Positions 26,895 to 44,033 of a stretch of 54,655 nucleotides of DNA are shown here, one piece after another (the stretch's first letter is position 1; every line of letters starts with the position of its first letter). The notes below the pieces were generated by a model, which was not told where the DNA came from, did not search any database, and worked only from the letters and a program-made list of their open reading frames with translations. The stretch lies in the sequence record MH706966. The stretch is one strand, 5' to 3'. Both the position numbers and the translations under genes were made by a program. The stretch is from Enterobacteria phage mEp021.

Positions 26895-27380
26895 ATGGCC
26901 CGCACTAAAAAGGCAAAGGCTGACGATAAAAAGACAGCCGCAAAAAGGGTGGGCCGTCCGCATGGTTATACCGAAGAAAAGGCATTAGAGATCTGTGAGC
27001 TGGTGGCGGACGGTCAAAGTATTAACAAGATTTCGAAGATGCCTGATATGCCTGCGCGTTCAACAATCCTTAAATGGTTCAGAGACGTGCCAGAGTTCTC
27101 GGACATGTACATACGCGCGAAGGAGATCGGTTTTGAGGTATTGGCTGATGAGATCATAGATATAGCAGATGCAGCGGAGAACATTGATAAAGACGAATGC
27201 CGCCGCCATCAACTGATGATTGAAACGCGTAAATGGCTATTGGCAAAACTGCAACCGCGTAAATATGGTGAACGCGTCACGCAGGAAATCGTTGGTAACA
27301 GGGAGGAAGCACCCGTCCAGGTAGAAGTCACGAAAGAAGAGATCGCCCGCATCGTCCAGGAAGTAGAAGACGAGGTGTGA
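26895..27380 (+). CDS. Terminase small subunit
   Basis: 161 aa; HTH-like N-terminal domain, position immediately upstream of the large subunit; SD aagaggtga. Confidence 0.6.
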   Translation: MARTKKAKADDKKTAAKRVGRPHGYTEEKALEICELVADGQSINKISKMPDMPARSTILKWFRDVPEFSDMYIRAKEIGFEVLADEIIDIADAAENIDKDECRRHQLMIETRKWLLAKLQPRKYGERVTQEIVGNREEAPVQVEVTKEEIARIVQEVEDEV

Positions 27381-27382
27381 TT

Positions 27383-28861
27383 ATGTTGACAATCAAAGAA
27401 CGAGTTATTCAGTCCAAATGTGAAAACGATGGCCTGTTTTTCAATCGCTATTTCTATAAACAAGCGAATGGAACGAAGATGTTAATCTCAGGCCATCATT
27501 TAGCTATCCGTGATGCACTACAACGCGTTATTAATGGTGAGATAACCCGCCTCATCATTAACATTCCCCCAGGGTACGGTAAAACCATGATCGCAACTAT
27601 CAACATGATGGCGCGGTCCCTCGCAATAAATCCCCGCACAAGATTCCTTCACGTTTCCTATTCCAACAACCTGGCGCTACTCAATTCCTCTACTGTAAGA
27701 AACATGATCTGTACGCCTGAATATCAGGCAATGTGGCCCATGAAGATCCGCAACGATGCAAACTCCAAATCGATGTGGTGGACCGAATACGGTGGCGGCG
27801 TGTATGCAACGTCATCACTTGGTCAGGTGACTGGGTTCCGTGCGGGGTACATGGAATCAGGATTTAACGGCGCGTTAATCATCGACGACCCATTAAAACC
27901 CGCTGACGCTTACTCTGACGTGGTGAGAAAGCAGGTAAACACCAACTATAACGACACACTTGCTTCACGTCTGGCAGTGCAAACAACGCCTGTTATCGTC
28001 ATCATGCAGCGCATCCACTACGATGATTTGTCCGGCTACCTGCTACGCGGTGGGAGCGGTGAAAAGTGGTATCACCTTAACCTGCCAGTGAAGATCGACA
28101 ACAGCATCGACTACTGGGATCTGTACCCTGAAAACGAGTTCGCCATCCCTATCGCTCACAACCTGCCAGATGGCTGGCTATGGCCTAAAAAGCACAATGA
28201 CAACCACGAAGCAGGACTGAAGGCACACAGAAGGTCATTCGAGGCCCAGTACATGCAGCGCCCGCGTAAATTCGACGAAGAGGGTGCATTGTGGACTGAA
28301 GCGATGATAACCGCCGCGCACCGGATGCAGATAACGCAGGAGAAAATTCGCACTGTGATAGCCATCGACCCGGCGACAACGTCATCTGATGAATCAGACG
28401 AAACAGGGATCGTGGCGTGTTCCGCTTATGGTGGCGGTAAGAATGCTCAGTATTCTGTTGATGGCGACTACTCAGGCCGCATGTCTCCTAACGACTGGGC
28501 GCAAGCCTCAATGAACGCCTACAACATCCATGAAGCTGACGCGATAGTTATCGAAACAAACCAGGGCGGCGAAATGGCAGAGGCCACGCTACGCAATGCA
28601 GGATTTAAAGGCCGCATTGTTAAGGTGCACGCAAGTAAAGGTAAATTCGCCCGCGCCGAACCAATATCAGCACTATATGCACAGGGCAGAGTAGCCCACA
28701 CTGGCAGCCTGTACACGCTGGAAAATCAAATGATGGAATACGTGCCAGCTACCGCTAAAAAATCCCCTGACCGTATGGACGCTATGGTGTGGGGCATCAC
28801 TGAACTAAGCCAACCACAGGCAATGGGCCTCATGTTACCGAAGCGCCTGCGCGGATTTTAA
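27383..28861 (+). CDS. Terminase large subunit
   Basis: Walker A-like INIPPGYGKT ATPase motif and C-terminal nuclease-like region; start set at ATG 27383 overlapping the terS stop. Confidence 0.85.
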   Translation: MLTIKERVIQSKCENDGLFFNRYFYKQANGTKMLISGHHLAIRDALQRVINGEITRLIINIPPGYGKTMIATINMMARSLAINPRTRFLHVSYSNNLALLNSSTVRNMICTPEYQAMWPMKIRNDANSKSMWWTEYGGGVYATSSLGQVTGFRAGYMESGFNGALIIDDPLKPADAYSDVVRKQVNTNYNDTLASRLAVQTTPVIVIMQRIHYDDLSGYLLRGGSGEKWYHLNLPVKIDNSIDYWDLYPENEFAIPIAHNLPDGWLWPKKHNDNHEAGLKAHRRSFEAQYMQRPRKFDEEGALWTEAMITAAHRMQITQEKIRTVIAIDPATTSSDESDETGIVACSAYGGGKNAQYSVDGDYSGRMSPNDWAQASMNAYNIHEADAIVIETNQGGEMAEATLRNAGFKGRIVKVHASKGKFARAEPISALYAQGRVAHTGSLYTLENQMMEYVPATAKKSPDRMDAMVWGITELSQPQAMGLMLPKRLRGF

Positions 28862-28918
28862 AATCTGCCTCACAATCACCCGCAAGTTTTTCTATTTTTC
28901 GCGTAGCAACGCGTAAAC

Positions 28919-30310
28919 ATGTATTCAGGAGTAAACATTATATTGCGTTTATTAGATTTGGCGGTTAATGCTGCCTTGTCACAACGTCAGGCGGCCTATG
29001 CCCGCTATGCAGCCGCCAACCCATTCACTATGGGGATAGATGCCAAACGAGATACTGCATGGAGTGAATACGGATTCAAGGAAGAAATCACGTATGACGA
29101 CCTGTACAAACTGTATAGACGCGGTGGTATTGCTCACGGTGCTATTGAGAAAATCATCACGACTTGCTGGCGCACCAGGCCAACGATGATCGAGGGAACA
29201 GAAGACGAGAAAGCGGAAACGGAAACACCCTGGGAAAGAGACATCAAGAAACAGTTTGATAACAGATTTTGGCGCACCATTGCCGAATGTGACCGCCGCC
29301 GCCTCATTGGTCGTTATGCTGGCCTGTTGATTCATGTCAGAGATAGCAAGCCGTGGGATCAGCCAGTGACAAAAGGCGTGGGTATTGCCAAATTTACCCC
29401 GGTATGGGCTGGCGCTCTCACACCGAAGGAGTTCGAAGAAGACCCTAACAGTGAAAACTATGGCCTGCCTACATGGTGGGAATACAAAGAGCGCATAAAC
29501 AGCAAGACCATTGCCAGAAAGATCCACCCTGACCGCATATTTATCTTTGGTGACTATTCTGATGATGCCATCGCCTTCCTTGAACCGTCCTATAACGCCT
29601 TTGTGTCACTTGAGAAAGTGGAAGGCGGTAGCGGTGAATCATTCCTGAAAAACGCTGCCCGCCAGTTAGCTATCTCGTTCGATAAAGAGATTGACTTCCG
29701 CTCCCTTGCTGCAACATACGGATGCGACGTCACAGAGCTACGCGAAAGATTCAATGAGGCTGCGGCTGAAATGAATAAGGGTAACGATGTGATGATGGCA
29801 TTACAGGGGGCGACAGTAAGCCCGCTGGTGACTGCCGTATCTGACCCGTCGGCAACCTATGACGTCAACCTGCAAACCGCCGCCGCTGGTATTGATATTC
29901 CAACCCGCATCCTGGTTGGGAACCAGCAGGGGGAACGCGCATCAACCGAAGACCTCCGCTACTTCAACAGTCGCTGCATGACCCGCAGGGAGGAAATCGG
30001 GGGTGAGCTTGAAGATCTGTTTCGCAAGATGGCAGATCTCCGCCTTATCAGTATGCCAGTCGATGTATCAGTTTTATGGGACGACCTGAACGCCATGACC
30101 AAAGCCGAACTACTGGAAGCGGCATACAAAATGGCACAAATCAATCAGGCTTGTCTGGCTACTGGTGAAGAAATATTTAGCGGTGATGAGATCCGCGAGG
30201 CTGCCGGATACGATGGCCCTGCCAGTGTAGTAGAAACGGAAGAGGAAAACGATGATGAAGGTGAAGAAGATAATCAGGCGAATACCTCCAGCCGCGATAA
30301 TGCCATCTAA
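28919..30310 (+). CDS. Portal protein (start uncertain)
   Basis: 463 aa; position after the terminase, acidic C-terminus; no SD at the annotated ATG, which lies inside a conserved 31-bp element. Confidence 0.65.
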   Translation: MYSGVNIILRLLDLAVNAALSQRQAAYARYAAANPFTMGIDAKRDTAWSEYGFKEEITYDDLYKLYRRGGIAHGAIEKIITTCWRTRPTMIEGTEDEKAETETPWERDIKKQFDNRFWRTIAECDRRRLIGRYAGLLIHVRDSKPWDQPVTKGVGIAKFTPVWAGALTPKEFEEDPNSENYGLPTWWEYKERINSKTIARKIHPDRIFIFGDYSDDAIAFLEPSYNAFVSLEKVEGGSGESFLKNAARQLAISFDKEIDFRSLAATYGCDVTELRERFNEAAAEMNKGNDVMMALQGATVSPLVTAVSDPSATYDVNLQTAAAGIDIPTRILVGNQQGERASTEDLRYFNSRCMTRREEIGGELEDLFRKMADLRLISMPVDVSVLWDDLNAMTKAELLEAAYKMAQINQACLATGEEIFSGDEIREAAGYDGPASVVETEEENDDEGEEDNQANTSSRDNAI

Positions 30311-31196
30311 CACAGAAGACCCTACCATGACAGGGAAGTTAAGGTCAGGCGCTATCAAGCGTTTTAAAGCCTGCCTTAAGAAAGTGGCGGATCCATATAT
30401 TGCCATACTGGACAGAATGCAATACAGCCTTGCTGTTAATAAGAAATACACCTTTCAGATCTACATTGACGAATTACATGACTTACTGGAAGACGCCAGC
30501 GACATGATTGATGAGATATTCGAGTTAACAGACCCGGAAAACTTCTGGTTCTGGCAAGAATATGTGAAGGTGGCATATCAACGCGGCACTTCTCAGGAAT
30601 ATGCCAACCTCGCTAATCAGTCAGTCACATATTCCAGGGCTTATCCTGAAGTGTCAGCGGTATTAACCAGCCAGACCTATCGCACGCGTCTTGCCCTGGT
30701 CCGTACCCGTGTATTTGAAGAGATGCGCGGGCTGACGGCACAGATCAAGAAGGATATGGCCCGCCGATTAACTGAAGGCATGGCCCGTGGTTTAAACCCG
30801 CTTGAAATAGCGCGTACATTGCAGCAGGAAACGCAATTACCGCTATACAGGTGCAAACGTATTGCCCGTACTGAAATATGCACAGCGTTACGCACAGCGC
30901 GTATGGATGAGGCAGAAGCGGCGACGGAAGAGCTTAACTTGCGCACTATGCAAATGCACATTTCGGCATTGTCACCGACTACCAGGCTATCACACGCACA
31001 GCGACACGGGAAAACATACACCATAGAAGAGCAGCGCGAATGGTGGAGTAGATCCCCTAATTCAATTAACTGCAAATGTAGCACTATTACCGTGATGGTT
31101 GATGAGTCTGGTAATATATTAAACAAACGAATATTAGATCGGGCGCAAGAAAACTATAAGGTTGCGCACGCTAAATATGGCGAAGATTGGGAGTAA
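30300..31196 (+). CDS. Head morphogenesis / minor head protein (Mu F / SPP1 gp7-like)
   Basis: Position after portal; start ambiguous between 30252 and 30300. Confidence 0.5.
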   Translation: MPSNTEDPTMTGKLRSGAIKRFKACLKKVADPYIAILDRMQYSLAVNKKYTFQIYIDELHDLLEDASDMIDEIFELTDPENFWFWQEYVKVAYQRGTSQEYANLANQSVTYSRAYPEVSAVLTSQTYRTRLALVRTRVFEEMRGLTAQIKKDMARRLTEGMARGLNPLEIARTLQQETQLPLYRCKRIARTEICTALRTARMDEAEAATEELNLRTMQMHISALSPTTRLSHAQRHGKTYTIEEQREWWSRSPNSINCKCSTITVMVDESGNILNKRILDRAQENYKVAHAKYGEDWE

Positions 31197-32473
31197 TAAC
31201 CGTGAGTAAAGAATTAATTCAGGTTAATACCAAATTAACCGCTAATACCATCCGCCGGGAAACGTATAACGGGCGTGAGCATATTGTTGTTCCGTCTTAT
31301 ACGTTACCCTTCAATATCGTTATGAATCGTGAATATTACCCGGAAGCTGAAATTATCGCTAATTATCAATCTCTGGAAGGCACGCTCGCACCGCTGGGTC
31401 ATCCTACGGTTGACGGTGAATTTGTTTCCGCATTTAGCCCGGAAGGTCTGAATATTGGCTTTTGTGGGGCATGGAACAGAAATGTTGAATTACGCGGCAA
31501 TCGTGTTTATGTGGAAAAATGGGTTGATGTTGAAACAGCCAGCCATTCAGAACAGGGCCGAGAATTATTAAGCCGAATTGAAGCGCTGGAAAAAGGCGAA
31601 AGCAAAGATCCGATCTGGTCATCCGTAGCCGTATATCGTCAGCGTATGCCAGCTACCGAAGAAATGAAAGCCCAGGGTGCTGACAGCGTTGTCAAAATTA
31701 TGTCGATTGACCATGATGCTATCTTACTGCATGAACCGCCAGCCGCATCGCCAGAACAGGGCGTTGGCCTGATGGTTAACACTGACCAGGCGAAGCCGTT
31801 AATGGCGGTGGCAATGAAAGAAAACAGCTATCGCACGCTTGAAAGACAATTGGAAGAAGCTGCGCGTGAACTGTTCCACGATGCAGATTATGTCTATGTT
31901 GTGGACTTCACAGATAAAGAAGTGACGATTGCCACTAATACCGAAAGTGCTCAAGTTTGCACATATGAAAAACAGGCTGATAAAATTATCTCTGATAATG
32001 GCGAGCTTGCAACCAATGAGGAAAGCAAATCCTGGTTTACGCAGTTCGCCGAACACCTTTCTAATCTTTTCTCCCTGAATGAAAAAATAAAGGCCAATAA
32101 ATCGGAGGACGATCCCATGCCTTTGACCAAAGAAGAACGCGCCGAACTGGTAAAAGAAATTAACGAAGGTTTAGCCGCTAATATCGCTAATGCAGTAGCA
32201 GAGGCATTAAAACCAGTACAGGCAAGCGTTGAAGAATTACAGACCAACCAGAAAGCGATTAAAGAAGAGATCGCAGCAAACGCAAATAAAGAAGTAGCAG
32301 AAAAACGCGCCGCAGTAGCAAAAGTTCACGGCGAAATTGTTGCTAACGCTTTAAGCGGTGAAGCGTTAGAAGCAATGTTTAAATCCCTGGGTAAAGCAGC
32401 ACCAATGGCAGCAAACTCAGCCGCTGGTGGAAATAAACCTGCCACCCCTGACATTAACAACTATTTCGCATAA
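31187..32473 (+). CDS. Scaffold-like head protein with coiled-coil C-terminus
   Basis: 428 aa; alanine/lysine/glutamate-rich helical C-terminal half; position before the capsid genes; possible GTG start at 31202. Confidence 0.45.
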   Translation: MGVITVSKELIQVNTKLTANTIRRETYNGREHIVVPSYTLPFNIVMNREYYPEAEIIANYQSLEGTLAPLGHPTVDGEFVSAFSPEGLNIGFCGAWNRNVELRGNRVYVEKWVDVETASHSEQGRELLSRIEALEKGESKDPIWSSVAVYRQRMPATEEMKAQGADSVVKIMSIDHDAILLHEPPAASPEQGVGLMVNTDQAKPLMAVAMKENSYRTLERQLEEAARELFHDADYVYVVDFTDKEVTIATNTESAQVCTYEKQADKIISDNGELATNEESKSWFTQFAEHLSNLFSLNEKIKANKSEDDPMPLTKEERAELVKEINEGLAANIANAVAEALKPVQASVEELQTNQKAIKEEIAANANKEVAEKRAAVAKVHGEIVANALSGEALEAMFKSLGKAAPMAANSAAGGNKPATPDINNYFA

Positions 32474-32484
32474 GAGGTGAAATT

Positions 32485-32886
32485 ATGGCCCGTTTTCGTC
32501 GTGTAAATATTGACGGTAAATCCGTTACTGAAACCGCAGTATCTGCCGCAGCACTTAAGCCTGGCACCCCGGTAAAAATGGCGTCTGGTAAATTCGCTGC
32601 CGCAACTGATACCACAGGACGTATTTATGTTGTTAATCCGGCATACCATGAAGGTTTAGGCATTGAAGATGCGATCCCGGTTGGTCATTCCGTGGTTGCT
32701 GACTACGCAGAAGAAGGACGCGAATTTGCAATTCTGCTTCCTGAAGGTACTTACACCAAAGACGCTGCCATCACCATCGGTGAAGGTGGGTTCAAATTGG
32801 TAGCATCTGATGAACCGGTTTTCGCTTTCTGCCAGGAAACTGTAACCCTTGAAGCGGCTGATTTTGTACGTGTCCGCGTTGCATAA
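32485..32886 (+). CDS. Head accessory protein (possible decoration or cement protein)
   Basis: 133 aa; strong SD; sits between the scaffold and the major capsid gene. Confidence 0.4.
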   Translation: MARFRRVNIDGKSVTETAVSAAALKPGTPVKMASGKFAAATDTTGRIYVVNPAYHEGLGIEDAIPVGHSVVADYAEEGREFAILLPEGTYTKDAAITIGEGGFKLVASDEPVFAFCQETVTLEAADFVRVRVA

Positions 32887-32905
32887 TAATAAGAGGTGAA
32901 AAACT

Positions 32906-33958
32906 ATGTTGTTTAATAAACACAACCTTGCTACCAACAGCCGCATTCGTGCTCAGTGGGATCACCTTTGGGCGCAGCGCAACATGTTCAATGATCGTGA
33001 CGGCGCTCTTATTGCCGCAAATATGGCAAACATGACCGCTGACATCCTGGCATGTAATGCCGTTGGCGGCTTCGATCAGGAATTCTGGAAAGCTATCGAT
33101 AACCAGATTATCGAAATGAGCACCGAAGAGACTGGCATCGAAATTGTAAACGACCTGATGGCTGTTCAAACCGTATTACCAATCGGTAAAACCGAGAAAA
33201 TGTACAGCGTATCCGGTGATATTAACGATGAAGTTGTCGTTAGTATTGATGGTCAAGCGCCACACGGCTTTGATCACACCGAATACGGTAGCGATGGCGA
33301 CCCGATCCCGATGTTCACAGCGGGTTACGGTGTCAACTGGCGTCATTCCGAAGGTCTGAAAACTGCGGGTATTGACCTTGCACTGGATAGCCAGCGCCTG
33401 AAACTGCAAAAATTCAACAAAGCCCGCGTTGATTATTACCTTAACGGTAACGCAAAAATCAACGTCAACGGTAAACCGGGCCAGGGTATTAAAAATCACC
33501 GTAATACCCAACAGCTGGTAATGACCTCCGAAGACCTCACCACTGACGGATTTGACGATCTCATCAAATTCTTCACCACTGGTGCATTCGGTGTAATGGC
33601 CCGCAATAACCGTGTTGATCAGTATGACATCATGTGGGTGTCCCCTGAAATTATGGCTAACATGGCGGCGCCGCACATTGCTAACGGTACTGTTGTTGGT
33701 ACTGTACTGAATATCGTTAAACCGTTCATTCCGGTTAAAGAAATCCGTCAGACCTTTGCACTGAAAGGCAACGAGTTCATTGCTTACCAACGCCGTCGCA
33801 ACGTCATTACCCCGCTGGTTGGTATGACCACTGGTGTTGTCCCAATGCCGCGCTTTATGCCTACCGATAACTACAACTTCAAAATCATGTCTGCCGAAGG
33901 CTTACAAATCACCTGCGACATGCTGGGCCGTTCCGGTGTTGTTTACGGTCACAAATAA
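32906..33958 (+). CDS. Major capsid protein
   Basis: 350 aa; strong SD; position; followed by a strong terminator, as expected for a highly expressed gene. Confidence 0.55.
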   Translation: MLFNKHNLATNSRIRAQWDHLWAQRNMFNDRDGALIAANMANMTADILACNAVGGFDQEFWKAIDNQIIEMSTEETGIEIVNDLMAVQTVLPIGKTEKMYSVSGDINDEVVVSIDGQAPHGFDHTEYGSDGDPIPMFTAGYGVNWRHSEGLKTAGIDLALDSQRLKLQKFNKARVDYYLNGNAKINVNGKPGQGIKNHRNTQQLVMTSEDLTTDGFDDLIKFFTTGAFGVMARNNRVDQYDIMWVSPEIMANMAAPHIANGTVVGTVLNIVKPFIPVKEIRQTFALKGNEFIAYQRRRNVITPLVGMTTGVVPMPRFMPTDNYNFKIMSAEGLQITCDMLGRSGVVYGHK

Positions 33959-33977
33959 TTTCCTTATTTCCTGTAAC

Positions 33978-34008
33978 TCCCCGGCGCAATGCCGGGGATT
34001 TTTTTTGT
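33978..34008 (+). terminator. Rho-independent terminator after the major capsid gene
   Basis: Hairpin tccccggc-gcaat-gccgggga followed by a T-run of 9. Confidence 0.75.
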
Positions 34009-34024
34009 ATGTGGAGCAAACAAA

Positions 34025-34411
34025 ATGGTCACTACAGAACAGGCGCGGGAATATCTTGAAAGCCAGGGTATTGACCTGCCAGACATTATCTTATCCTTGC
34101 TGGTGGAGCAGGCAAACAGCGTTAACGAATGCCTTGATGCCAACTATCCGGCCTCCACTGCAACATTAATTCAACTTTATCTGATTGGCCTGTCAGGACT
34201 AACCCAGGCTAACAAATACGTTTCCTCGCAGACTGGTCCGAACGGTGCAAGCCAGTCATACCGCTATGTCGATTTTAATAAAAAATGGAAGGCGGCCTAT
34301 TCGTTGCTTTATTCCCTGGACAAACATCACTGTACAGCAGAACTAATTCCACCAGATCCAGAAAACACCGCGCACGCCGGGCTGTGGATAGGTAAAAGCG
34401 GGAGGATGTAA
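34025..34411 (+). CDS. Head-tail joining / head completion protein (by position)
   Basis: Start at the internal ATG downstream of the terminator. Confidence 0.4.
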   Translation: MVTTEQAREYLESQGIDLPDIILSLLVEQANSVNECLDANYPASTATLIQLYLIGLSGLTQANKYVSSQTGPNGASQSYRYVDFNKKWKAAYSLLYSLDKHHCTAELIPPDPENTAHAGLWIGKSGRM

Positions 34412-34413
34412 CA

Positions 34414-34599
34414 ATGTGGAATGACCTGACATTACCGAATCCGTTATTACCGAAACCGTTTACCCGCGTATGGGTGCAGACTGATACCGGGAGGCAGGTG
34501 GCGGCATATCTTAATGACGCTGGCGAATGGGTGATTCTATGCCCGCGCGTGGCGAAAACCCATCCGAAAATCATCAAATGGAGTTGCGGATATGAGTAA
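34414..34599 (+). CDS. Hypothetical structural protein (61 aa)
   Basis: ORF in a packed structural operon. Confidence 0.35.
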   Translation: MWNDLTLPNPLLPKPFTRVWVQTDTGRQVAAYLNDAGEWVILCPRVAKTHPKIIKWSCGYE

Positions 34600-34960
34600 G
34601 ATCGCGAGATTCAGCTATAAGGCATTAGCCACCATTTACCCCGTGACGCGTGACGACTGGACAAACTCCGACGTATACGGAACGCCATACCTGATTGATT
34701 GTGCATGGGAACGCACTGACGGAACCGCAACAGACGCAAACGGGAATGAGGTTAGCAACACAATAACCGTATATACCGAACTGCTTCACAAGATGCAGCC
34801 AGTACAGCGCCCGGAAAAAGGGTGGATGCTTGCCACTGGTGACACTACTGCTATTGCTGACCCGCTGGCGGCTGGGGCCAACTTTATAACCGGGATCGTT
34901 GAATGGGACATGAGCATGTTTAACGACACGCCGGACTATAAGATCGTCACAGGAGGTTAA
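34592..34960 (+). CDS. Head-tail connector protein (by position)
   Basis: 122 aa; packed operon. Confidence 0.4.
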   Translation: MSKIARFSYKALATIYPVTRDDWTNSDVYGTPYLIDCAWERTDGTATDANGNEVSNTITVYTELLHKMQPVQRPEKGWMLATGDTTAIADPLAAGANFITGIVEWDMSMFNDTPDYKIVTGG

Positions 34961-34962
34961 TT

Positions 34963-35403
34963 ATGCCTATTAGGGGCGTCAAACGTGTCAGGGAGCGATT
35001 AAAGCAGGAGCTAAAGGAAATCACAGATAAGAAAACTTATGAGGTGTTATGGCGAGTAGGGATGCTGGCTGGTGGCTTCGCAGCGAACATGACCCCAGTT
35101 GACACGGGTTTTTTAATTAACAGTCAATTTCAGTATATAGGTAACACGGCGGAGGGTATGCAATTACGACTGGGGTATACGGCCCGTTACGCTGAATGGG
35201 TGCATGACATGCCGGGTAAATTAAAAGGCCAGCCGCGTAAACATTTCGGCAAAACCAGAGAAGGCGTAGAATTTGGCGGCGGTACTGGTAAGGGTAATTA
35301 TTGGGACCCAAACGCGGAGCCGGAATTTTTGCGTAATGCATTTGAAGATCCAAACAACGCTGACGATATTTATAAAACGATTATAGAAGGTTACAAAACA
35401 TGA
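34963..35403 (+). CDS. Head-tail connector / tail completion protein (by position)
   Basis: 146 aa; packed operon. Confidence 0.4.
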   Translation: MPIRGVKRVRERLKQELKEITDKKTYEVLWRVGMLAGGFAANMTPVDTGFLINSQFQYIGNTAEGMQLRLGYTARYAEWVHDMPGKLKGQPRKHFGKTREGVEFGGGTGKGNYWDPNAEPEFLRNAFEDPNNADDIYKTIIEGYKT

Positions 35404-35786
35404 AACGCAGCGAGGTTTACGACGAAATAAGGGATTGGATTAAATCCCACGGGTACGACGAAGGTTATATTTTGCAGGCCCGTTTCTGGAATGAGCGATC
35501 CAATTCGAATAACAGCAGATATATTGTCATACAGCAAAACGGCGGAGCGGCGGGAGAAGAGGCGATAACCCGCGACTATTTCCGCATCCTGGTTATTTCG
35601 GCGCGTAATGACGCAAATATCAGTGAAGTGGAAGATCTCGCCGATGCAATACGGCAAAGTATGATAACAGAGTATAAAACTGATAAAATTACATACATGA
35701 AGCCAGTAGGCGCTATTCCTGCAATGCAGACAAGAGAAGGGCGCTTTATTTTTACCGTAGCTTTTCAAACCATCATATCAAGATAA
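35400..35786 (+). CDS. Tail completion protein (by position)
   Basis: 128 aa; packed operon. Confidence 0.4.
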   Translation: MKRSEVYDEIRDWIKSHGYDEGYILQARFWNERSNSNNSRYIVIQQNGGAAGEEAITRDYFRILVISARNDANISEVEDLADAIRQSMITEYKTDKITYMKPVGAIPAMQTREGRFIFTVAFQTIISR

Positions 35787-35799
35787 GAGGTAACTAAAC

Positions 35800-36276
35800 A
35801 TGTCTCAGACTTGTGATAAAGGTTCGTTCTTAGGCCGCGACGTTGCCGTATTTTACGCTATCGCTTGCCCTAATGCGAAACCTGAAGAAAGCGCTTATAA
35901 AGCGTTAGGCATGATGCGTGGCAAATCTCTTTCCGTAGAATGGGAAACCGCAGACGCCACCGCTGATAAATCAGCAGACTACACCAAAGAATCACTGGTA
36001 ACTTACAAATCTGTTGCCTTCTCAGGTGACGGCGTATCACGCACCGAAGAGATCTACAATCAGAAAGCACTTAAACGCCACGTTATTAACCCTGGCGAAA
36101 CAACTGGTGCGCAGCCTTACGTCTGGTTGAAACTCGTTTCCCCGCTCGACGTAACAGAAGGCCCGTTTCTTTGCACCTCCTTTAAAGAAGAGGATCCGCA
36201 CGACGATGTGTCCACTTGGTCCATTGAATGCGAAAGCGCTGGCAAAGTCACGGTAGGTGACGTTCCGTCAGTGTAA
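35800..36276 (+). CDS. Major tail protein (by position and size)
   Basis: 158 aa; strong SD; followed by a terminator hairpin. Confidence 0.45.
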   Translation: MSQTCDKGSFLGRDVAVFYAIACPNAKPEESAYKALGMMRGKSLSVEWETADATADKSADYTKESLVTYKSVAFSGDGVSRTEEIYNQKALKRHVINPGETTGAQPYVWLKLVSPLDVTEGPFLCTSFKEEDPHDDVSTWSIECESAGKVTVGDVPSV

Positions 36277-36293
36277 CAATAAATATTAACATC

Positions 36294-36320
36294 GGGGCCA
36301 TTTGGCCCCTTTATTTTTTA
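36294..36320 (+). terminator. Rho-independent terminator after the major tail gene
   Basis: Hairpin ggggcc-attt-ggcccc followed by tttatttttta. Confidence 0.7.
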
Positions 36321-36331
36321 TGGTGACAGTT

Positions 36332-37012
36332 ATGATTCATGTTCGAACCGGACAATTTGCGGTCGTTGTTGATGGCAGACGTTACGAGTTCAACCCATGC
36401 TTTGCTGCAATGGCTAAGATCGGCAGTGACAGGGAACTGGTTGAATATTTCGCAACTGTGCACGGTGGCAAATACCCACAGCGTTTGCCAACGGATCCAG
36501 ACCTCCGCAATCGCATTATGGCGCGTTGTTATGGTGAGTTAGTGCAAACGTCCATCCACGTCCTGAAATGTTGCTCAGAATGCGAAATAGGCCAGTTATT
36601 GGGCGAATGCAGCTTTACTCCTTCGGGTAAGTTGAGACTGAAACCTGGGTTGATGCCCACCAGCGACGTTATCACACTGGCGCAACACTGCATGTATCAC
36701 GGTTTGATTGGTGACGGACCAGATGAGGACACTGGCGAGGAGCAGGAAGGAGACTATAAACAGACGTTTGACATCCTTGAATACGTTTACTCCGCTGTTG
36801 CTCACCTGGGATTGTCTGAATCTGAAGCATGGGGCATGACAATGACCGGATACAGGGCCGCTGTACGCGCTAAAACGCCACCAGACGAAAGAAACGAGAA
36901 ACGTAAGCCAAACGTTCATATAAATAAACGTGATTATGATGAGCAAATGGAGGCAGCTAAAAGGGTGCTGGAATTGATGAAAAAACGCGAGCAAGAAAAA
37001 GCCCGGGGTTAG
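36332..37012 (+). CDS. Tail assembly chaperone (G/GT-like by position)
   Basis: Position between the major tail gene and the tape measure gene; start moved downstream of the terminator. Confidence 0.4.
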   Translation: MIHVRTGQFAVVVDGRRYEFNPCFAAMAKIGSDRELVEYFATVHGGKYPQRLPTDPDLRNRIMARCYGELVQTSIHVLKCCSECEIGQLLGECSFTPSGKLRLKPGLMPTSDVITLAQHCMYHGLIGDGPDEDTGEEQEGDYKQTFDILEYVYSAVAHLGLSESEAWGMTMTGYRAAVRAKTPPDERNEKRKPNVHINKRDYDEQMEAAKRVLELMKKREQEKARG

Positions 37013-37052
37013 CCGGGCGTTATATGTCGATGATGCTTTTTGATGGTGCCAA

Positions 37053-37469
37053 TTATCTGAACCTTGCTATTTCAATTCTGCCGTTGCCCAAGTCAATGAT
37101 GGCATGATTTTTTATACCCGCGCCGCCTTCGTTAAATATTCTTTCAGCAAATGCGGCTTTATCAGCGTTACACTCATTGGCTATTCTGTTTCTTATTTCA
37201 TCGTTGCCTTCGAATACGACGCCTACAGCAGCCTCCTTCACAAGTCCCCAGTTAAACCATCTTGCGTAAACCGGTTTACCTTCGAAATGATCGTCAATTG
37301 CTTTATAAAAAACCTTGATAGCTGCGGGTTCCTTCTTGAAGATTTTGTGGTATTCGGCAACATTATTAGCTACATCATCGCAGTTTATATTCATCACATC
37401 GTTTGCGTTGGCGTTGAATGCTAAACCTACCATTACCGCCATCACTGCCGCTTTGATTAGCCGTTTCAT
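37053..37469 (-). CDS. Secreted/periplasmic protein of unknown function (moron)
   Basis: 138 aa; N-terminal signal peptide MKRLIKAAVMAVMVGLAFNANA; two Cys; opposite strand to the tail genes; SD gggggtgggg. Confidence 0.55.
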   Translation of the reverse strand: MKRLIKAAVMAVMVGLAFNANANDVMNINCDDVANNVAEYHKIFKKEPAAIKVFYKAIDDHFEGKPVYARWFNWGLVKEAAVGVVFEGNDEIRNRIANECNADKAAFAERIFNEGGAGIKNHAIIDLGNGRIEIARFR

Positions 37470-37482
37470 ACCCCACCCCCGC

Positions 37483-37569
37483 TTATTTTTTGTTTTTAAG
37501 TGCCTTCAGCATTTCTTCGATAAAGTCGGCATAGTGCTCATGCTCGTTGGGTCGGTAGTAGTTTTTCAT
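37483..37569 (-). CDS. Small hydrophilic protein (28 aa), first gene of a two-gene moron operon
   Basis: MKNYYRPNEHEHYADFIEEMLKALKNKK; SD aagagga 7 nt upstream. Confidence 0.35.
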   Translation of the reverse strand: MKNYYRPNEHEHYADFIEEMLKALKNKK

Positions 37570-37725
37570 TTTCTTATCCTCTTTGCTTCCTCCGGTTAAT
37601 CCGACCTTCTAAATCCCTTTACTCTATCCCTTTCCTTTAGCCTCTTTATACAAAATGTATTCGTTGAAGTGAAGCCATTTTGTATAAAATAGAGATCAGT
37701 ATCACACTTTTTACGAGGTTAAATC

Positions 37726-40071
37726 ATGTCCACCAGTTTAGGTACAATTTATTACGAAGTTGATGCAAAAACTGGTCAACTTCTAGTCGCTCAGAGACAG
37801 GCGGATCAGGCTTTTGACAGTATCGAGCGTGGCGCAAAACGCGCTGACCGCCAGGTTAACACGCTTAAAACTTCAATCAAAGCACTATCCAGGGTTATAC
37901 ATCTGCTACTTGCTGCGGAGGCTGTGCGCCAGTTTATTGACATGGCGGAGCAAGCAAAAATGCTTCGTGTCAAAATTAAAATGCTCACAGGTGACGCAGA
38001 GGCCGCAGGACGTGTTTTTGACGGCCTGAAAAAAATATCAAAGGAAACCGGGCAAAGCCTTAAAGACACTGGCGAATTGTGGCAAGGCCTGGCTATTTCA
38101 CTAAAGAATACTTCCGCTACGGAAGGCCAATTGCTCAACCTGGTTGGCACTATTCAGAAGATGGGGGCGTTAGGAGGCGCGTCAGCGGAACAGATGTCTA
38201 ATTCTATGCGCCAGTTCCGCCAGTCTATAGACGGCGGCGTGCTGCGTGCTGAAGAGTTTAACAGCCTGTTAGAGAACACGCCGACCATCGTACAGACAAT
38301 GGCCCGCCATATGGGGTTGTCAATGGGCCAGTTCCGCGCCGAAATGCTGGACGGCAAGATCACGGCTGAAAGGATGGTTAACGCGATTCAGGCAGCTACA
38401 CAGGAAACAAACGAGAAGTTTGCACAGTTGCCGCGCACGTCCGGCAAGGCTATCAATGAGCTTAAAGTTGAGGTGATGGGGCTTGTCGAACAACTTGACG
38501 ATCTTTTCGGCATATCAGATGGCGTTGTATCAGCTATCGACTTAATAACTGGCGGCGTTGAGGGATTAGGTAAAGGCGCTAAATTCGCCGCAACCTGTTT
38601 TAATACACTCAAAACGGCTGGCAGTGAGTTCATAGACATGTTTGACGACGTGGCTGTTAAGGCTGGCGAGGTGGCGGAAGAAATCATTAGAATGGTAACG
38701 CCAATCAAGGCGCTAATGGATGGCTACAAATGGATGAAGGAGATTGTAGGAAAGCAAACAGAAGAATATAACACCAATTATGAGAAGAAATACGGTAAAA
38801 GACTTGGTAAGGGAATGCAATTTTGGGATGATTGGCAGGCCGTACTTAACCAAACAAAAGAAAACAAGGGAACCGACACCGCTGACGACGGCAAGATCAC
38901 CGGATTCGAGCCACCAGTAGATAAGCCAGGAAAACCGAAAAAAGGAAAAAAAGACAAGAAATCTGAAGCTGATCGGCTTGGTGATGAAGGTATAAAAGTG
39001 TCCGACCAGTACAACAAGGACGCCGCCGCTATGCGCAAAGCATTAGAGAACGGCAAGGCCATTGATGCTGCATTCGCCCAGGGCAAAATCACCCTCCTTG
39101 AGTACAAGGCCGCGCAAAAGGGGATAGGCAAGGAACTGAAGGACGAATTGGCACAAATCCCGGTGGAAGAATTGCAAGATAAATGGGCGCACATAGTAAG
39201 CCCAATGGATCAGCTTAAGGGCGAAATTGACCCAATCAAACAGGCGCAGAATGAGTGGGCTGTCAGAAAACAAATGCTATTAGACCTGGGAGCTACAGAA
39301 GCGCAACAGAGACAGGCGCAGTTAGAATATGAGCAACAGATCAGGGATCTGAAGTGGGAGCAATGGCAGGCGCAAAGCGACACAAACAGCCTGATTGGTG
39401 CTTGTGTTAGCGGCCTCAAGGGTGGCATGGGTAATGCGCTTACTGGCCTGTTAAACGGTACTCAATCATTAAGCGAGGTTTTTGCCAACCTGGGAAGCAG
39501 CATACTTAACACCGTAGGCAATAAACTTTCGGAAATAGCCGCTAACTGGATAGCAGATCAATTGATGATGGAAACGCAAAGCAAGGCTACACAGGCAAGT
39601 ACAGCGGCTGGCGCTGTGGCAGCGCAGGGCGAGATTGCTGCGGCAGCGGCCCCGGCAGCGGCTGCGACGGCGGCATCAACTGGCGGTAGCTGGGCGGCGG
39701 CTGGTGCTGCGGCGCTTTCTGCTATCATGTCGCTGGCAACGTCAATTTTTGGCGGCGGTCGTTATAATGGTGGTTCTGTGAATGGTGGCAGTCTGTATCG
39801 CGTAGGGGAACACGGAATACCGGAGCTATTCCAGACGAGCAACGGGCGTCAGTATATGATTCCTGGGGAAAATGGCAGGGTTATTCCTGGCCGCGATCTT
39901 TTCAGTGGTGGCAGCATCAGTATGCCTGTTAACATTACCGTTCAGACCACAAACGGGTTTAGCGAAGAGGACAGTCGCAGATTGCAAGACGCCATGAAAC
40001 GCGTTGCAATGGGAGTAATTAAAGAGCAAAGTTCAAGGCCCGGAGGTCTTATCCAACCACGAAGAAAATAA
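37726..40071 (+). CDS. Tail tape measure protein
   Basis: 781 aa; helical N-terminal two-thirds, glycine/alanine-rich segment, position in the tail module; SD gaggt. Confidence 0.85.
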   Translation: MSTSLGTIYYEVDAKTGQLLVAQRQADQAFDSIERGAKRADRQVNTLKTSIKALSRVIHLLLAAEAVRQFIDMAEQAKMLRVKIKMLTGDAEAAGRVFDGLKKISKETGQSLKDTGELWQGLAISLKNTSATEGQLLNLVGTIQKMGALGGASAEQMSNSMRQFRQSIDGGVLRAEEFNSLLENTPTIVQTMARHMGLSMGQFRAEMLDGKITAERMVNAIQAATQETNEKFAQLPRTSGKAINELKVEVMGLVEQLDDLFGISDGVVSAIDLITGGVEGLGKGAKFAATCFNTLKTAGSEFIDMFDDVAVKAGEVAEEIIRMVTPIKALMDGYKWMKEIVGKQTEEYNTNYEKKYGKRLGKGMQFWDDWQAVLNQTKENKGTDTADDGKITGFEPPVDKPGKPKKGKKDKKSEADRLGDEGIKVSDQYNKDAAAMRKALENGKAIDAAFAQGKITLLEYKAAQKGIGKELKDELAQIPVEELQDKWAHIVSPMDQLKGEIDPIKQAQNEWAVRKQMLLDLGATEAQQRQAQLEYEQQIRDLKWEQWQAQSDTNSLIGACVSGLKGGMGNALTGLLNGTQSLSEVFANLGSSILNTVGNKLSEIAANWIADQLMMETQSKATQASTAAGAVAAQGEIAAAAAPAAAATAASTGGSWAAAGAAALSAIMSLATSIFGGGRYNGGSVNGGSLYRVGEHGIPELFQTSNGRQYMIPGENGRVIPGRDLFSGGSISMPVNITVQTTNGFSEEDSRRLQDAMKRVAMGVIKEQSSRPGGLIQPRRK

Positions 40072-40126
40072 TTTATTGATTTAATCTTACGCCCGCAAGA
40101 TAATGACGTATCCTTGCGGGCTTTGC

Positions 40127-41461
40127 TTACGCGGCTTTTATAATTTCTTTATACTTATCTTCCACCATGTTAAAAACCTCTGGTCTGTAGTAGAAAAATT
40201 CGCAACTACCATCAAATTTTACTGGGAAGTTAATTTTGTAATTATTAAGGGTTTTGTGTATCGCGCCTTCTAGTTCATAGATATTTTGTGTCGGACCTTC
40301 TAATGTTTTTACGATATGCAAATCAGGAATCGTTACACCCGCTTTATGTGCGCTACTTAGTATTCTATTTCTTCGTTCGTTTTCCTTAACACTTACCCCT
40401 ACTTTCATTAGCGTTGGTACTTCCAGATCGTCAACCATGATATAAAGTTTGCCGCGTTCGTAGGATAAAAAACCCTTTTTAGCACATTTAGAACAGCCGC
40501 TACCTTCCTTAAGTTTTTGCGGCGTGGTTCGCCACTTATAACCACACACTTTACATAAACACGATACTTTGTTTTTATTCCCTGTTATTTTACCTACCAC
40601 TTTGATATTAGGGTTGATGTTGGCAATGGCTTTTACTTGCTCATCATGTGATATTCTTCGTGCTTGCGATCCTTTTCGTTTCGCACACTTCGGGCAACCA
40701 GTACCTTTTTTAAGGCTGGCTGGAGTAGTTAACCACTCATGACTGCAAGACTTACAGCGGCATAACGTTCTCGTAGTATTGTTAATAATTTTTTCTAATA
40801 CCTCAACGCTAGGACTGGTTTTCGCAATAACTGCAATTTGTTCTTCATGTGATAGTTTGGTGTGTCCGCTACATTTCGGGCAGCCAGTACCATGCTTGAT
40901 GTTGTTGGGAGTTGCTGGCCATTCATGATTGCAAATCTTACATTTGCATAATACTTTTTTTAAACTCGCAGATTAAAAGGGGTTTTATTCAATATTGCTG
41001 TTAACCTTCGCAATAGCTGCAACTTGTTCTTCATGCGTTAATCTTCTATCTGCGCATTTTGGGCAACCTTGCCCGATTTTAAGTGTTTCAGGTCTAGCCA
41101 ACCATTCATGATCACAAACTTTGCAATGGCATAATACCTTTGTTTTATTATTAATAATTACCCCTAACACCTTAATATCAGGATTAACTTTAGCAATAAT
41201 TGCAACCTGTTCTTCGTGTGGTAATGCCCGTTTTTGTGCTCTTTTTAACGCCGCACATTTAGGGCAACCAACACCGCGCTTAAGATCAGCAGGTCTACCA
41301 AACCATTCGTGATTACAAGTTTTGCAGCAGCATGATACTTTTTCCATATTCCCGGTAATTACCCCTATCACCTCGATATTGGGGTTAACTTTTGCAATAG
41401 CGGCAACTTGTTCTTCGTGTGTTAATTTTTTTGTCATAATACCGCTCCTACAATCTTCCAT
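40127..41461 (-). pseudogene. Disrupted paralog of the Zn-ribbon/GIY-YIG-like gene at 7737-9224
   Basis: A single reading frame of about 445 codons carries about five Zn-ribbon modules and an intact C-terminal GIY-YIG-like domain but is interrupted by two in-frame TAA stops (+ strand 40985-40987 and 40973-40975). Confidence 0.55.
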
Positions 41462-41547
41462 TCCGTCCTACATAACTCCTGCCGAACATTACCAACCAGA
41501 TGCTCCAGATCTCCCGCCATGTGTATTTCTCATTCTTCATACCCGCC

Positions 41548-41802
41548 TCACTTATGAGCGCCTTTTACGCCACATAACTTGTTATAAAAATGGTGCTCAA
41601 CGATTAACCAAACCCTCAGATCTTCACTGAACAGCCGCCAATCAGGATTAATGTCAAACTTCCAGCCATAACCATCGCGTAACTTTTTGGGGTTGGCCTC
41701 TTTCTTCAGGAAAGCATTTAATAAGGCTTTTCCCTTTTTGATGATCCGGTCCTGTGCGTTTTTCTGTGCTTTCAGGTTTTTACCAATCGCCACCAATTTC
41801 AT
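41548..41802 (-). CDS. Small protein (84 aa), possibly RelE/YafQ-like toxin fold
   Basis: Lysine-rich N-terminal helices then GYGWKFDINPDWRLFSEDLRVWLIVEHHFYNKL, loosely resembling the YafQ PDW-L-Y pattern from memory; SD gcggggtgg. Confidence 0.3.
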   Translation of the reverse strand: MKLVAIGKNLKAQKNAQDRIIKKGKALLNAFLKKEANPKKLRDGYGWKFDINPDWRLFSEDLRVWLIVEHHFYNKLCGVKGAHK

Positions 41803-41820
41803 AATCCACCCCGCAATCAA

Positions 41821-41976
41821 TTAGTTGACCACTTTCAGGAAGAAATCACAGTATTCATCTTCTTTTGCATTCATCATGAACTGACCGTATTTGAATGCGT
41901 CATCAAAGCCTTTTACAATCGCCACTTCCACCTGTTCGAATGCGTTGTTCAGCATTACCACTACATAGCGTTTCAT
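41821..41976 (-). CDS. Small protein (51 aa), upstream partner of the 84-aa gene
   Basis: MKRYVVVMLNNAFEQVEVAIVKGFDDAFKYGQFMMNAKEDEYCDFFLKVVN; strong SD aaaggagggg 4 nt upstream of the ATG. Confidence 0.4.
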   Translation of the reverse strand: MKRYVVVMLNNAFEQVEVAIVKGFDDAFKYGQFMMNAKEDEYCDFFLKVVN

Positions 41977-42146
41977 GATGCCCCTCCTTTGTTGGTACTG
42001 CTTTCTCTTCTTGCCTCCTATATACATCTTGTTACGTCATGTGTGAAGCCATTTTGTAAACTGGGTATAATTCTTGTGACGAAGTTCTCATTTTTCGCGT
42101 AGAAGCGCGTAAAGATGTATGCAATATGTAACTTATAGGGGGAATC

Positions 42147-42500
42147 ATGCCTGAAGTTTTCAGATGGACGCCGCAAAGAAGCTACAGCGTGACCAGGGAA
42201 CCAAATGTGTCGGTCGTTAAACTTGGTGATGGTTATGAACAGCGCCAGGCTAAAGGGATTAACACGTTGCTTGATAGCTACACCCTGGTTTTTAAAGGCA
42301 GTAGCGCAGGATGCGGTGATAGTGGGAACGTGGCGATCCAGGCAGAAGCATTCTTGAGGGCGCGCGGCGCTGTCGAGGCTTTTTACTGGTCGCCGTCTAT
42401 GGATGGTGTGCAAAGGCTTTTTGTTTGCCGTAGCTGGAGTATGACAAAGGACGGGCCTGTATACACGCTAAACGCAACATTTGAGCAAGTTGTCAGTTAG
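42147..42500 (+). CDS. M: Minor tail protein M
   Basis: 117 aa; size and position as lambda gpM, immediately before gpL-like; SD taggggga. Confidence 0.65.
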   Translation: MPEVFRWTPQRSYSVTREPNVSVVKLGDGYEQRQAKGINTLLDSYTLVFKGSSAGCGDSGNVAIQAEAFLRARGAVEAFYWSPSMDGVQRLFVCRSWSMTKDGPVYTLNATFEQVVS

Positions 42501-42697
42501 TGGGGGTTAATATGTACGGGACTTGTGTAGTGGACAAAACTGACGCTTTTACATTGTTTGACGACTACGAGATCAACGACCTTACTGTAAAGGCTGACAA
42601 TGGCGATACATGGTATCTTCATGATGTTGGTGATGGTTATGTGGGATGCAGATCCAGAGAAGGCAAGGAGGTTTTATTTTTGGTTGATGGCGTATAA
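42500..42697 (+). CDS. Hypothetical protein (65 aa)
   Basis: ORF overlapping the gpM stop. Confidence 0.35.
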   Translation: MGVNMYGTCVVDKTDAFTLFDDYEINDLTVKADNGDTWYLHDVGDGYVGCRSREGKEVLFLVDGV

Positions 42698-42876
42698 TAA
42701 CAACCCCGCTTCGCGCGGGGTTTTCTTGTCAGTAGTTAATGTACATCAAACTCATTGGGTGAGCGTGCGCCATATTATTGGCTATCGCCGCCCAGTCCCA
42801 ATCGGCAGCATGAACGCCAAATACTATCAGTCCCATTATTATTAGCGCCAAAACTTCTATTTTCATAATCTGTCAC

Positions 42877-43191
42877 CTATAAGTTATCACGCAGGTAATT
42901 AACGCCCTTATCAGTGACGAATGAATGGTTTACCTGGTTTTCATCCGTCATGATGATGAATAACTTTTCCTGTAGGTATTTCGCTTTCGGGTACAGTGTT
43001 AAACAGACCTGGTACAGTATCCCGCGCTCAATCAGCAAATCAATAAATTCGTGCTCATGATAACCGATAAGGCGGGCGGCCTGTTTCAACGTGTACACAT
43101 AGTCACCGTGATTACGCCGTGCCATGATTTTATTCTCACATATCAAAAAATAGCATGTCAGGTATAAAAGTATCGCCGCAAGAATTTCCAT
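42877..43191 (-). CDS. Hypothetical protein, possible HTH DNA-binding protein (start ambiguous)
   Basis: YTLKQAARLIGYHEHEFIDLLIERGIL HTH-like segment; alternative start at 43125. Confidence 0.4.
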   Translation of the reverse strand: MEILAAILLYLTCYFLICENKIMARRNHGDYVYTLKQAARLIGYHEHEFIDLLIERGILYQVCLTLYPKAKYLQEKLFIIMTDENQVNHSFVTDKGVNYLRDNL

Positions 43192-43369
43192 ATCCTTTTA
43201 CCGTACTACCATCAATATCAATCACTGTGAGCGGCACAAAATTTAAACAGTCATCGACAGTGAAACGGCTGCCAGAAGGTGTAATGAATAATGGGTATCT
43301 ATTTTTTATATTAAAATCATCATTTTTGTTAGATGTAACAACGAGTTTGATAACACCTATCATCTTCAT
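43136..43369 (-). CDS. Hypothetical protein (77 aa)
   Basis: ORF in the opposite-strand island. Confidence 0.35.
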   Translation of the reverse strand: MKMIGVIKLVVTSNKNDDFNIKNRYPLFITPSGSRFTVDDCLNFVPLTVIDIDGSTVKGYGNSCGDTFIPDMLFFDM

Positions 43370-43384
43370 ATATCGGCCTACACT

Positions 43385-43738
43385 TTATTTGCCATTAAAA
43401 CAGCCCAGGTTATCTATGCAGAAGTCTTTTGCCGCTTTTTCGTATTCGCGTTTTGCTTCCGGATCGTCAGCTGGAAAACCTTTTGCGTGTATTTCTCCAG
43501 GGCAAGATTGATCCATAGAATCAGCAAATTCAACATTGACGTTAAAGTTAATATCTTTCGGGTTCATCTCTTCCACCTTATCCGGTACTTGGACCGGAGT
43601 AATATCAAAATCACGATAGTTAAACCCACAGCGAAGTAATTCACGACCTTCATCACGCGCCGCAGCATATGTGTCAAATAGGCCCATGCGTTCCCATCCG
43701 CATTTATTAGTAAACACGTCTAAACTGTATTTTTGCAT
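43385..43738 (-). CDS. Hypothetical protein (117 aa)
   Basis: ORF in the opposite-strand island. Confidence 0.45.
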   Translation of the reverse strand: MQKYSLDVFTNKCGWERMGLFDTYAAARDEGRELLRCGFNYRDFDITPVQVPDKVEEMNPKDINFNVNVEFADSMDQSCPGEIHAKGFPADDPEAKREYEKAAKDFCIDNLGCFNGK

Positions 43739-43750
43739 TTTGTTAACCTC

Positions 43751-43981: not shown

Positions 43982-44033
43982 CCGTTTTGGTATGATTTAG
44001 CGTGACGTAGATCACAAATTGCAAGGTGATAAA

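Follow-up and report, generated by a model that had tools for sequence, protein, structure and literature searches.

A leader box with tandem CGCGTAR repeats at two late-gene entry points of mEpimmI phages

Introduction

The 54,655-nt DNA of Enterobacteria phage mEp021 (record MH706966; analysed at full length and called the window below) carries two near-identical 31-mers, one in front of the portal gene (copy 1, portal type) and one in front of the gene for a gpM-like minor tail protein (copy 2, gpM type). Both represent a single cis-acting leader box, about 45 nt long, of the mEpimmI phages, which recurs in a satellite-like island of Escherichia coli. Tentatively, we favour a site that is read by its sequence: two CGCGTAR repeats, one helical turn apart, would be bound by a factor controlling the downstream block.

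Several described systems use short elements of comparable layout. The late promoters of phage P2 depend on an activator and satellite P4 carries copies of them, while in the Cox boxes of P2 direct repeats follow each other at a distance of about one helical turn. The ops/JUMPstart element of RfaH is a box of about 40 bp, conserved as sequence, which is found in operon leaders just 5′ of gene starts, depends on orientation and contains GTAGC. The stoperators of mycobacteriophage L5 are asymmetric protein-binding sites located within transcription units in a fixed orientation.

The mEpimmI box resembles the P2 system in that a short cis-element precedes several morphogenetic blocks and recurs in a satellite-like element. 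It differs in carrying neither the TGT-N12-ACA dyad nor a recognisable core promoter downstream and in having no known activator; moreover, the late genes of mEp021 are driven by an antiterminator of the lambda Q type. With the nut sites of lambda and of mEp021 itself it shares a potential small hairpin with a GC stem, a U- and purine-rich loop and a place in a transcribed leader, but it has no boxA, the gpM-type loop does not look GNRA-like, the stem does not covary, the box belongs to the late region, and islands carry versions in which the hairpin is broken. The likeness to ops/JUMPstart is confined to GTAGC in the portal type: the defining GGCGGTAG is missing from the box, and a direct reading of the non-template strand for ops (GGCGGTAGnnTG) showed only GTAGC (copy 1) or GTAGA (copy 2). 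Unlike the stoperators, the box is present in two copies only, does not resemble the operator candidates of the immunity region and has no link with a repressor.

A lambda-type PR′ Q-binding element (qut) with its pause site was also considered, as the phage has a homologue of lambda Q and the 9-mer GCGTAAACA of the box is found again in the window's PR′ spacer. However, in relatives whose box is identical this spacer reads CGAAAAC, and GCGTAAAC is absent from it. The shared 9-mer is thus window-specific and coincidental. Copy 1, besides, has neither the promoter nor the pause element that a Q-type site would need, and this candidate was rejected.

The relatives of the window form the mEpimmI group, a recently described set of phages (PMC11893012) that is frequent in the human gut. 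That paper treats their repressor, N-like antiterminator and three nut sites; promoters, operators and late-region signals are not mentioned in it, nor is the leader box.

Results

Two copies of one box

An earlier note on this DNA, made from the sequence alone, had reported a 31-bp element occurring twice. Both 31-mers are indeed present on the + strand (Table 1) and agree at 28 of 31 positions. Searching the window with the degenerate 31-mer and up to 3 mismatches returned these two sites only, and none of 100 dinucleotide-preserving shuffles contained a match. The pair is therefore real, while its extent had been underestimated: local alignment, with three indels of 1 nt each, carries the likeness from 28890 to 28942 in copy 1 and from 42085 to 42137 in copy 2 (about 53 nt), up to the position of the portal start codon of the relatives.

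Each copy holds two CGCGTA blocks, at 28900-28905 and 28910-28915 in copy 1 and at 42096-42101 and 42106-42111 in copy 2. The earlier note had taken them for half-sites, and the blocks themselves were found as described. The implied dyad was not, since conservation is asymmetric: the TAG is invariant and its three mirror-image bases are free, which argues against a symmetric dyad. Direct repeats fit better, namely CGCGTAG (28900/42096) and CGCGTAA (28910/42106), 10 bp apart, with invariant repeats and a free spacer. Two like-oriented repeats about 10-11 bp apart, as in a tandem direct-repeat site, are thus present in both copies.

The box has the orientation of the gene that follows and is located 15-31 nt 5′ of the ribosome-binding site of that gene, inside transcribed DNA; between the end of copy 2 and the gpM ATG there are 26 nt. 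Another ATG, inside copy 2, opens a 7-codon open reading frame (ORF), a reading that we rejected because this ATG is not conserved (GATATAT, GGTGTAT).

Conservation in related phages

The box was searched for in IMG/VR, GenBank phages, 5,426 complete E. coli genomes and metagenomes. The exact-pattern scan of IMG/VR gave 90 stretches on about 50 contigs, nearly all of which carry one portal-type and one gpM-type copy, together with three unrelated chance hits. All six GenBank relatives have two copies each, with no annotated feature beneath the match. Of the complete E. coli genomes 51 are box carriers, in which the median number of places is two; UMNK88, with a single place in the genome scan, was found on inspection to have the gpM copy. 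Loosening the pattern in metagenomes gave only the same four sequence types. Altogether, about 50 related phages and prophages contain exactly two copies each, before portal and before gpM, and no third copy was detected in 914 kb of related loci with up to 4 mismatches allowed.

A conservation profile was built from distinct sequences, 46 of the portal type and 33 of the gpM type. Outside its three-base spacer, ATTTTTCGCGTAG-nnn-CGCGTAAA is invariant in the gpM type and shows only a few singletons in the portal type; across the core one T-to-C change was noted. The intergenic flanks on both sides of this core have many variant positions. Spacer types cross between sites, the portal type being found before gpM in L046 and the gpM type before portal in L054 and L096, which suggests that the two copies are functionally equivalent. 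That the similarity arose by chance, or by a recent duplication still drifting, has a negligible probability. Nothing but the shortness of the match speaks for it; none of the shuffles reproduces the match, and each copy is independently conserved across some 50 phages, which refutes this explanation.

Every close relative has the element, but Enterobacter and Klebsiella prophages with a 60%-identical portal protein lack it; their terminase is of another kind and the gap behind it is short. The refuting condition named in the earlier note, absence from related phages that keep these genes, thus had a split outcome. A protein scan of representative genomes for distant relatives found nothing, flank-anchored DNA scans found no variant cores, and the loosened pattern gave only chance hits in representative genomes. 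Judged from these sequences, the box is confined, among phages, to the mEpimmI-type group. By the same profiles the element is real and under strong purifying selection, with fixed copy number and orientation.

A third context in a satellite-like island

Eleven E. coli genomes carry a single 36-nt copy of the box (TTCTATTTTTCGCGTAGCAACGCATAAACAAGTATT), 94% identical to the phage copy, in an island of 10.5 kb between eutB and eutA, beside the intZ integrase. It is flanked by a gene for an AlpA/Xis-like helix-turn-helix (HTH) protein and an ORF of 103 amino acids, neither of which has a counterpart in the window. Downstream are ORFs of unknown function, a homologue of the Sf6-type small terminase (TerS), 38% identical to that of the phage, and a 726-amino-acid tape-measure homologue, which at its ends shares 50-53% identity with the tape-measure protein of the phage. 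The box is the sole stretch with more than 90% nucleotide identity between island and phage. With its TerS and tape-measure homologues and the box as sole near-identical stretch, the island looks like a satellite of the mEpimmI group, and the box looks, from these comparisons, as if it had been kept or acquired as a discrete unit.

The islands at eutB/eutA (intZ, CPZ-55) in L135 (strain KSC9, NZ_CP018323.1, 144.5-155 kb), L181 and L182 have homologues of TerS, tape-measure protein and an HK97-gp10-like protein, and are probable phage satellites with a tape-measure gene; a literature search found no paper linking CPZ-55 to satellites.

The 7_33_46A-type island carries a variant box, TTTCACGTAGCGTCACTTAAAC, and has no proteins in common with the phage. 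In this variant CGC is changed to CAC in both direct repeats. A helper phage with a CAC-variant box was searched for and not found.

Sequence recognition or RNA fold

The box can be drawn in two ways, as a hairpin UUU-CGCGU / ACGCG-U-AAA or as the two direct CGCGTAR repeats. The former would make it an RNA operator, a hairpin UUU-CGCG(U)-loop-(A)CGCG-U-AAA of the messenger RNA located 5′ of the ribosome-binding site, at which a protein sets translation, stability or antitermination; in one version it would be a nut-like site for the N-like protein Gp17. We consider this doubtful, but it remains a serious rival. The element is on the same strand and in an intercistronic or 5′-leader position in all three contexts, its stem and the T-run/A-run extension are conserved, and the loop is conserved in its 5′ half and free in its 3′ half, as is typical for protein-bound hairpin loops. 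Copy 2 has a predicted RNA fold of -13.6 kcal/mol with z = -2.6 against shuffles. Also, the boxB hairpins of the phage itself (12246-12262, ~20190 and ~10975) have similar GC stems of 4-5 bp and U- and purine-rich loops (UGGAAGU versus UAGAAG).

However, a count over twelve representative sequences showed none of 8 pairs changed on both sides, each departure being unpaired. All 5 stem substitutions break pairing, giving C-A, A-C or C-U mismatches and never G-U: a T-to-C in L102, a G-to-A in the KSC9 island, and two G-to-A and one G-to-T in the 7_33_46A island, where the hairpin is destroyed. Folding is no better than in shuffles for copy 1 (z = 0) and the island versions (-0.5 and +0.7). A search for boxA (CGCTCTTTA-like) gave no match near either copy, the adjacent TTCTATTTTT and TTCTCATTTTT being weakly boxA-like. 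As for boxB, the stem is present in all phages and broken in islands; the loops GCAA, GCGA and GAAA fit GNRA but GAAG, GAAT, GAGG and GCTA do not, and gpM-type loops do not look GNRA-like. No Rfam covariance model matched at the gathering threshold over the whole window, and permissive matches were only to coronavirus untranslated-region models (E 0.07 and 1.9), which are meaningless. Finally, the island operon has no + strand intrinsic terminators that would need antitermination. Nothing points to an RNA-processing element, which the earlier note had also proposed: the hairpin shows no covariation and copy 1 does not fold better than its shuffles.

The pair-breaking changes, the asymmetry and the parallel CAC change favour sequence recognition, though these points are few and come from closely related sequences. 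Under our preferred reading the three box sites (the terminase-portal intercistronic gap, the leader of the short gpM unit and the gap behind the AlpA-like gene of the island) would each present direct CGCGTAR repeats between a T5 tract and an A3 tract. A sequence-specific factor, most simply a DNA-binding protein from phage or host, would bind the repeats in tandem, on one face of the DNA, and once bound would set RNA polymerase entry or the expression level of the downstream morphogenetic block. That a protein binds, that its target is DNA and not RNA, and the direction of the effect are what we infer here.

As a candidate factor we considered the Xis-like HTH protein encoded at 1343-1570 of the window, to which a protein of the box-bearing island is homologous with 53% identity, while islands without the exact box encode no homologue. 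Its gene overlaps integrase genes, also in unrelated Proteus and Salmonella phages, and the attachment-site arms contain no CGCGTA repeats. Given this overlap, and because its sequence follows the type of integrase, the protein is likely an excisionase and a poor candidate for the box factor, and it was rejected.

Several observations weigh against recognition by sequence. The one regulator common to phage and island, the 76/78-amino-acid HTH protein just rejected, has an identity of no more than about 45% between phages that carry the same box. The phage sequences are 85-100% identical, so the missing covariation carries little weight; the fold of copy 2 stands on the side of the RNA operator, and a fixed orientation inside transcribed leaders suits an RNA-level signal equally. 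The parallel CGC-to-CAC change comes from one lineage and from an island without phage proteins, and that copy may simply have decayed. The NRZ105822-type island has TerS, tape-measure and gp10 homologues yet no box; related islands of this kind without it indicate that the box is dispensable for that lifestyle.

Promoters, terminators and other known signals

A further explanation is an activator-dependent late promoter, in which the box would bind a late activator and transcription would begin just 3′ of it, as in P2. The box directly precedes two morphogenetic blocks and a satellite-like operon with TerS and tape-measure homologues, and its direct repeats, 10 bp apart, may recall the sites of lambda CII or P2 Cox. 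We nevertheless regard this as improbable: no -10-like TAnnnT is found at a common distance in the three contexts, promoter scans for -35 and -10 hexamers at a spacing of 16-18 bp gave no sigma-70 promoter at either copy on either strand, and the distance from box to Shine-Dalgarno (SD) sequence is too short for a core promoter plus leader. The phage also already has a complete Q/PR′/tR′ late system. A clear homologue of the lambda Q antiterminator is encoded at 21612-22334, and a PR′-like promoter (-35 at 24239-24244, -10 TAAAAT at 24262-24267) is followed by a pause-like AACAAT (24275-24280) and the tR′ terminator (24296-24317) right before the holin gene, all of which are conserved in relatives. 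The Q homologue has an additional CxxCxGxG zinc-ribbon insert.

Copy 2, moreover, has its own promoter-like TATAAT about 20 nt upstream, invariant among relatives, for which no -35 hexamer passed in the promoter scan. With this module upstream, copy 2 would begin at about +12 of a leader of about 68 nt. The promoter scan showed nothing promoter-like upstream of copy 1.

A related proposal is that the box is the site of a second, Q-independent late regulator of the head block (portal onward) and of the gpM unit, and that the eutB/eutA island copied it so that its TerS/tape-measure operon fires with the helper. We think this unlikely; if true, it would be a regulatory code common to helper and satellite in a phage group described in 2025.

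Other signals were examined and rejected. The best hand-read candidate for a - strand promoter is TTTACG-17-TAGAAA in copy 1, the equivalent of which in copy 2 reads TGAGAA; a promoter for the reverse-strand cassette has a better candidate to the left of the box (TTCACA-17-TATATA, 42047-42019), and copy 1 would then drive antisense terminase RNA, the target of which is not conserved. Scans for intrinsic terminators listed neither copy on either strand; the hairpin is preceded by a T-run on the + strand and followed by an A-run on the - strand, which is not a terminator layout. A packaging (pac) site was rejected by reasoning, as relatives that have exchanged their terminase still keep the box, and packaging would have no use for another copy 13 kb off. 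Among motifs of host factors (CpxR, PhoP, OmpR, NagC, PurR, TyrR), none seemed to fit well enough to be put forward.

A module-boundary or recombination linker

The two boxes might instead be junctions without regulatory role, persisting where modules are exchanged and homing endonucleases inserted. The terminase module is exchanged among relatives, with the junction ...AAAATCTG immediately 5′ of copy 1; variable reverse-strand cassettes lie just 5′ of copy 2; an HNH endonuclease gene is found right behind copy 2 in L069 and HNH genes at the equivalent spot in two islands; and spacer variants have been exchanged between copies. Recombination utility, however, leaves unexplained why 21 core positions are letter-perfect beside drifting intergenic bases, and why the box is 94% identical when phage and island proteins are only 38-53% identical. 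Recombination between two direct copies 13 kb apart would, in addition, delete head and tail genes. We therefore see little chance that the box is such a linker.

The HNH gene of L069 is free-standing and lies directly after the gpM-type box (~56-530 nt past it); those of the two islands, which are without box, are at 1058-1453 in L137 and 749-1144 in L140.

The portal start

The earlier note had observed that copy 1 overlaps the annotated portal ATG, that this ATG has no SD sequence and that the start is therefore doubtful, and all of this was borne out. ATG 28919 lies inside copy 1 and is the first, in-frame ATG of the mechanical ORF 28919-30310; it is conserved among relatives, once as GTG. 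In all relatives the order is box, AGGAG, 8 nt and ATG, this second ATG being 21 nt 3′ of 28919. The NCBI Prokaryotic Genome Annotation Pipeline (PGAP) starts the prophage portal gene there, and portal homologues of 60-96% identity begin with MPSNLE..., MTDKLT... or MNKNLT... at this point. On these comparisons ATG 28919 is evidently not the main portal start; a minor, longer isoform from it is conceivable.

The window alone has ATA at 28940, within a 10-nt patch (28942-28951) unlike all relatives, including the cluster of 96%-identical proteins: codons 28940-28951 read ATA TTG CGT TTA in the window and ATG CCA TCC AAT in all relatives, so that the start codon served by the SD sequence is lost. 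The genome of mEp021, the mEpimmI prototype, was assembled from SOLiD reads with manual editing (PMC11893012), and the patch may be an assembly error. If it is genuine, the portal start of the window would likely be TTG 28943.

Genome setting

With about 91% identity to mEp010, mEp013, mEp044, mEp515, mEp554 and MagusPhagus, the window represents a temperate phage of E. coli. Copy 1 is located in the 78-nt gap between the genes of the terminase large subunit and the portal protein, copy 2 in a divergent gap of 119 nt between a reverse-strand cassette (40127-42027) and gpM (Table 1). The short unit behind copy 2 consists of gpM, one further ORF and a terminator, and a second reverse-strand cassette divides it from gpL.

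Table 1. Features around the two copies of the leader box (positions in the window)
Feature	Position	Strand	Details
Terminase large subunit gene	27377-28861	+	Stops 32 nt before copy 1
Box, copy 1 (portal type)	28894-28924	+	ATTTTTCGCGTAGCAACGCGTAAACATGTAT; core ATTTTTCGCGTAG-CAA-CGCGTAAA, 28894-28917
Portal ribosome-binding region	28927-28945	+	SD AGGAG 28927-28931; start position of relatives 28940-28942 (ATA here); in-frame TTG 28943-28945
Portal gene (PF06381)	28943-30310	+	Likeliest window start TTG 28943
Promoter-like module 5′ of copy 2	42049-42071	+	13-mer CCATTTTGTAAAC (TTTTG + TAAACT); TATAAT 42066-42071; from sequence only
CRP-like palindrome	42075-42090	+	TGTGAcgaagtTCTCA (TGTGA-N6-TCTCA); abuts copy 2, between TATAAT and box
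Box, copy 2 (gpM type)	42090-42120	+	ATTTTTCGCGTAGAAGCGCGTAAAGATGTAT; core ATTTTTCGCGTAG-AAG-CGCGTAAA, 42090-42113
gpM-like minor tail protein gene (PF05939)	42147-42500	+	SD GGGGG 42138-42142
ORF of 65 amino acids and terminator	42500-42722	+	ORF 42500-42697, then bidirectional intrinsic terminator 42702-42722; closes short gpM unit

The two reverse-strand cassettes (40127-42027 and 42877-43924) interrupt the tail cluster in the order tape measure, cassette, gpM, cassette, gpL. The first contains endonuclease-like repeats; ORF 7737-9224 has homologous ones in the form of tandem repeats of 183 bp. In gpM-type leaders a start-stop mini-ORF, ATGTAA (42126-42131), is almost invariant, 16 nt 5′ of the gpM start.

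The 13-mer family CCATTTTGTAAAC (TTTTG plus a -10-like hexamer) occurs at 21 sites against 5 expected, among them 6062, 11081, 11924, 16566, 20075, 20143, 37675, 42049 and 43921, which lie at promoter-like places: the presumed PL, the interior of early operons, and the regions preceding the genes of the tape-measure protein, gpM and gpL. The family may represent a class of promoters specific to the phage, or else an asymmetric operator. The CRP-like palindrome beside copy 2, in which the half-sites are conserved and the 6-nt spacer is free, has a twin before gpL (44001-44016). Palindromes of the form GTGA-N6-TCAC number 7 against 1.9 expected (16519, 20096, 42075, 44001, 11126, 12164 and 37691). 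At 16519/16566 and 20096/20143 the distance from palindrome to 13-mer is exactly 47 nt, and at gpM and gpL the palindrome is just 3′ of the -10 and would be centred near -62 and -70 for the divergent promoters of the reverse cassettes.

Elsewhere in the window, a strong intrinsic terminator (~33965-33995) lies right behind the major capsid gene within the late operon, two additional boxA-like CGCTCATTA are found in the late region at 26422 and 53129, a perfect 43-bp tandem repeat is located near the immunity region (10227-10314), and the tail fibre gene (49575-50970) has twelve 108-bp repeats.

Discussion

The analysis corrects the portal start and shows where, at the start codon of this gene, the sequence of the window probably contains an error. 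It also provides, in the box, a small and concrete target for mutagenesis and pull-down. The late-gene regulatory element proposed by the earlier note is a reasonable idea, upheld as far as a conserved box before two late-gene units and in a third context is concerned. That the element is letter-perfect where two late-gene units begin, and turns up again in a probable satellite, points to a layer of late-gene control beyond Q in the mEpimmI phages.

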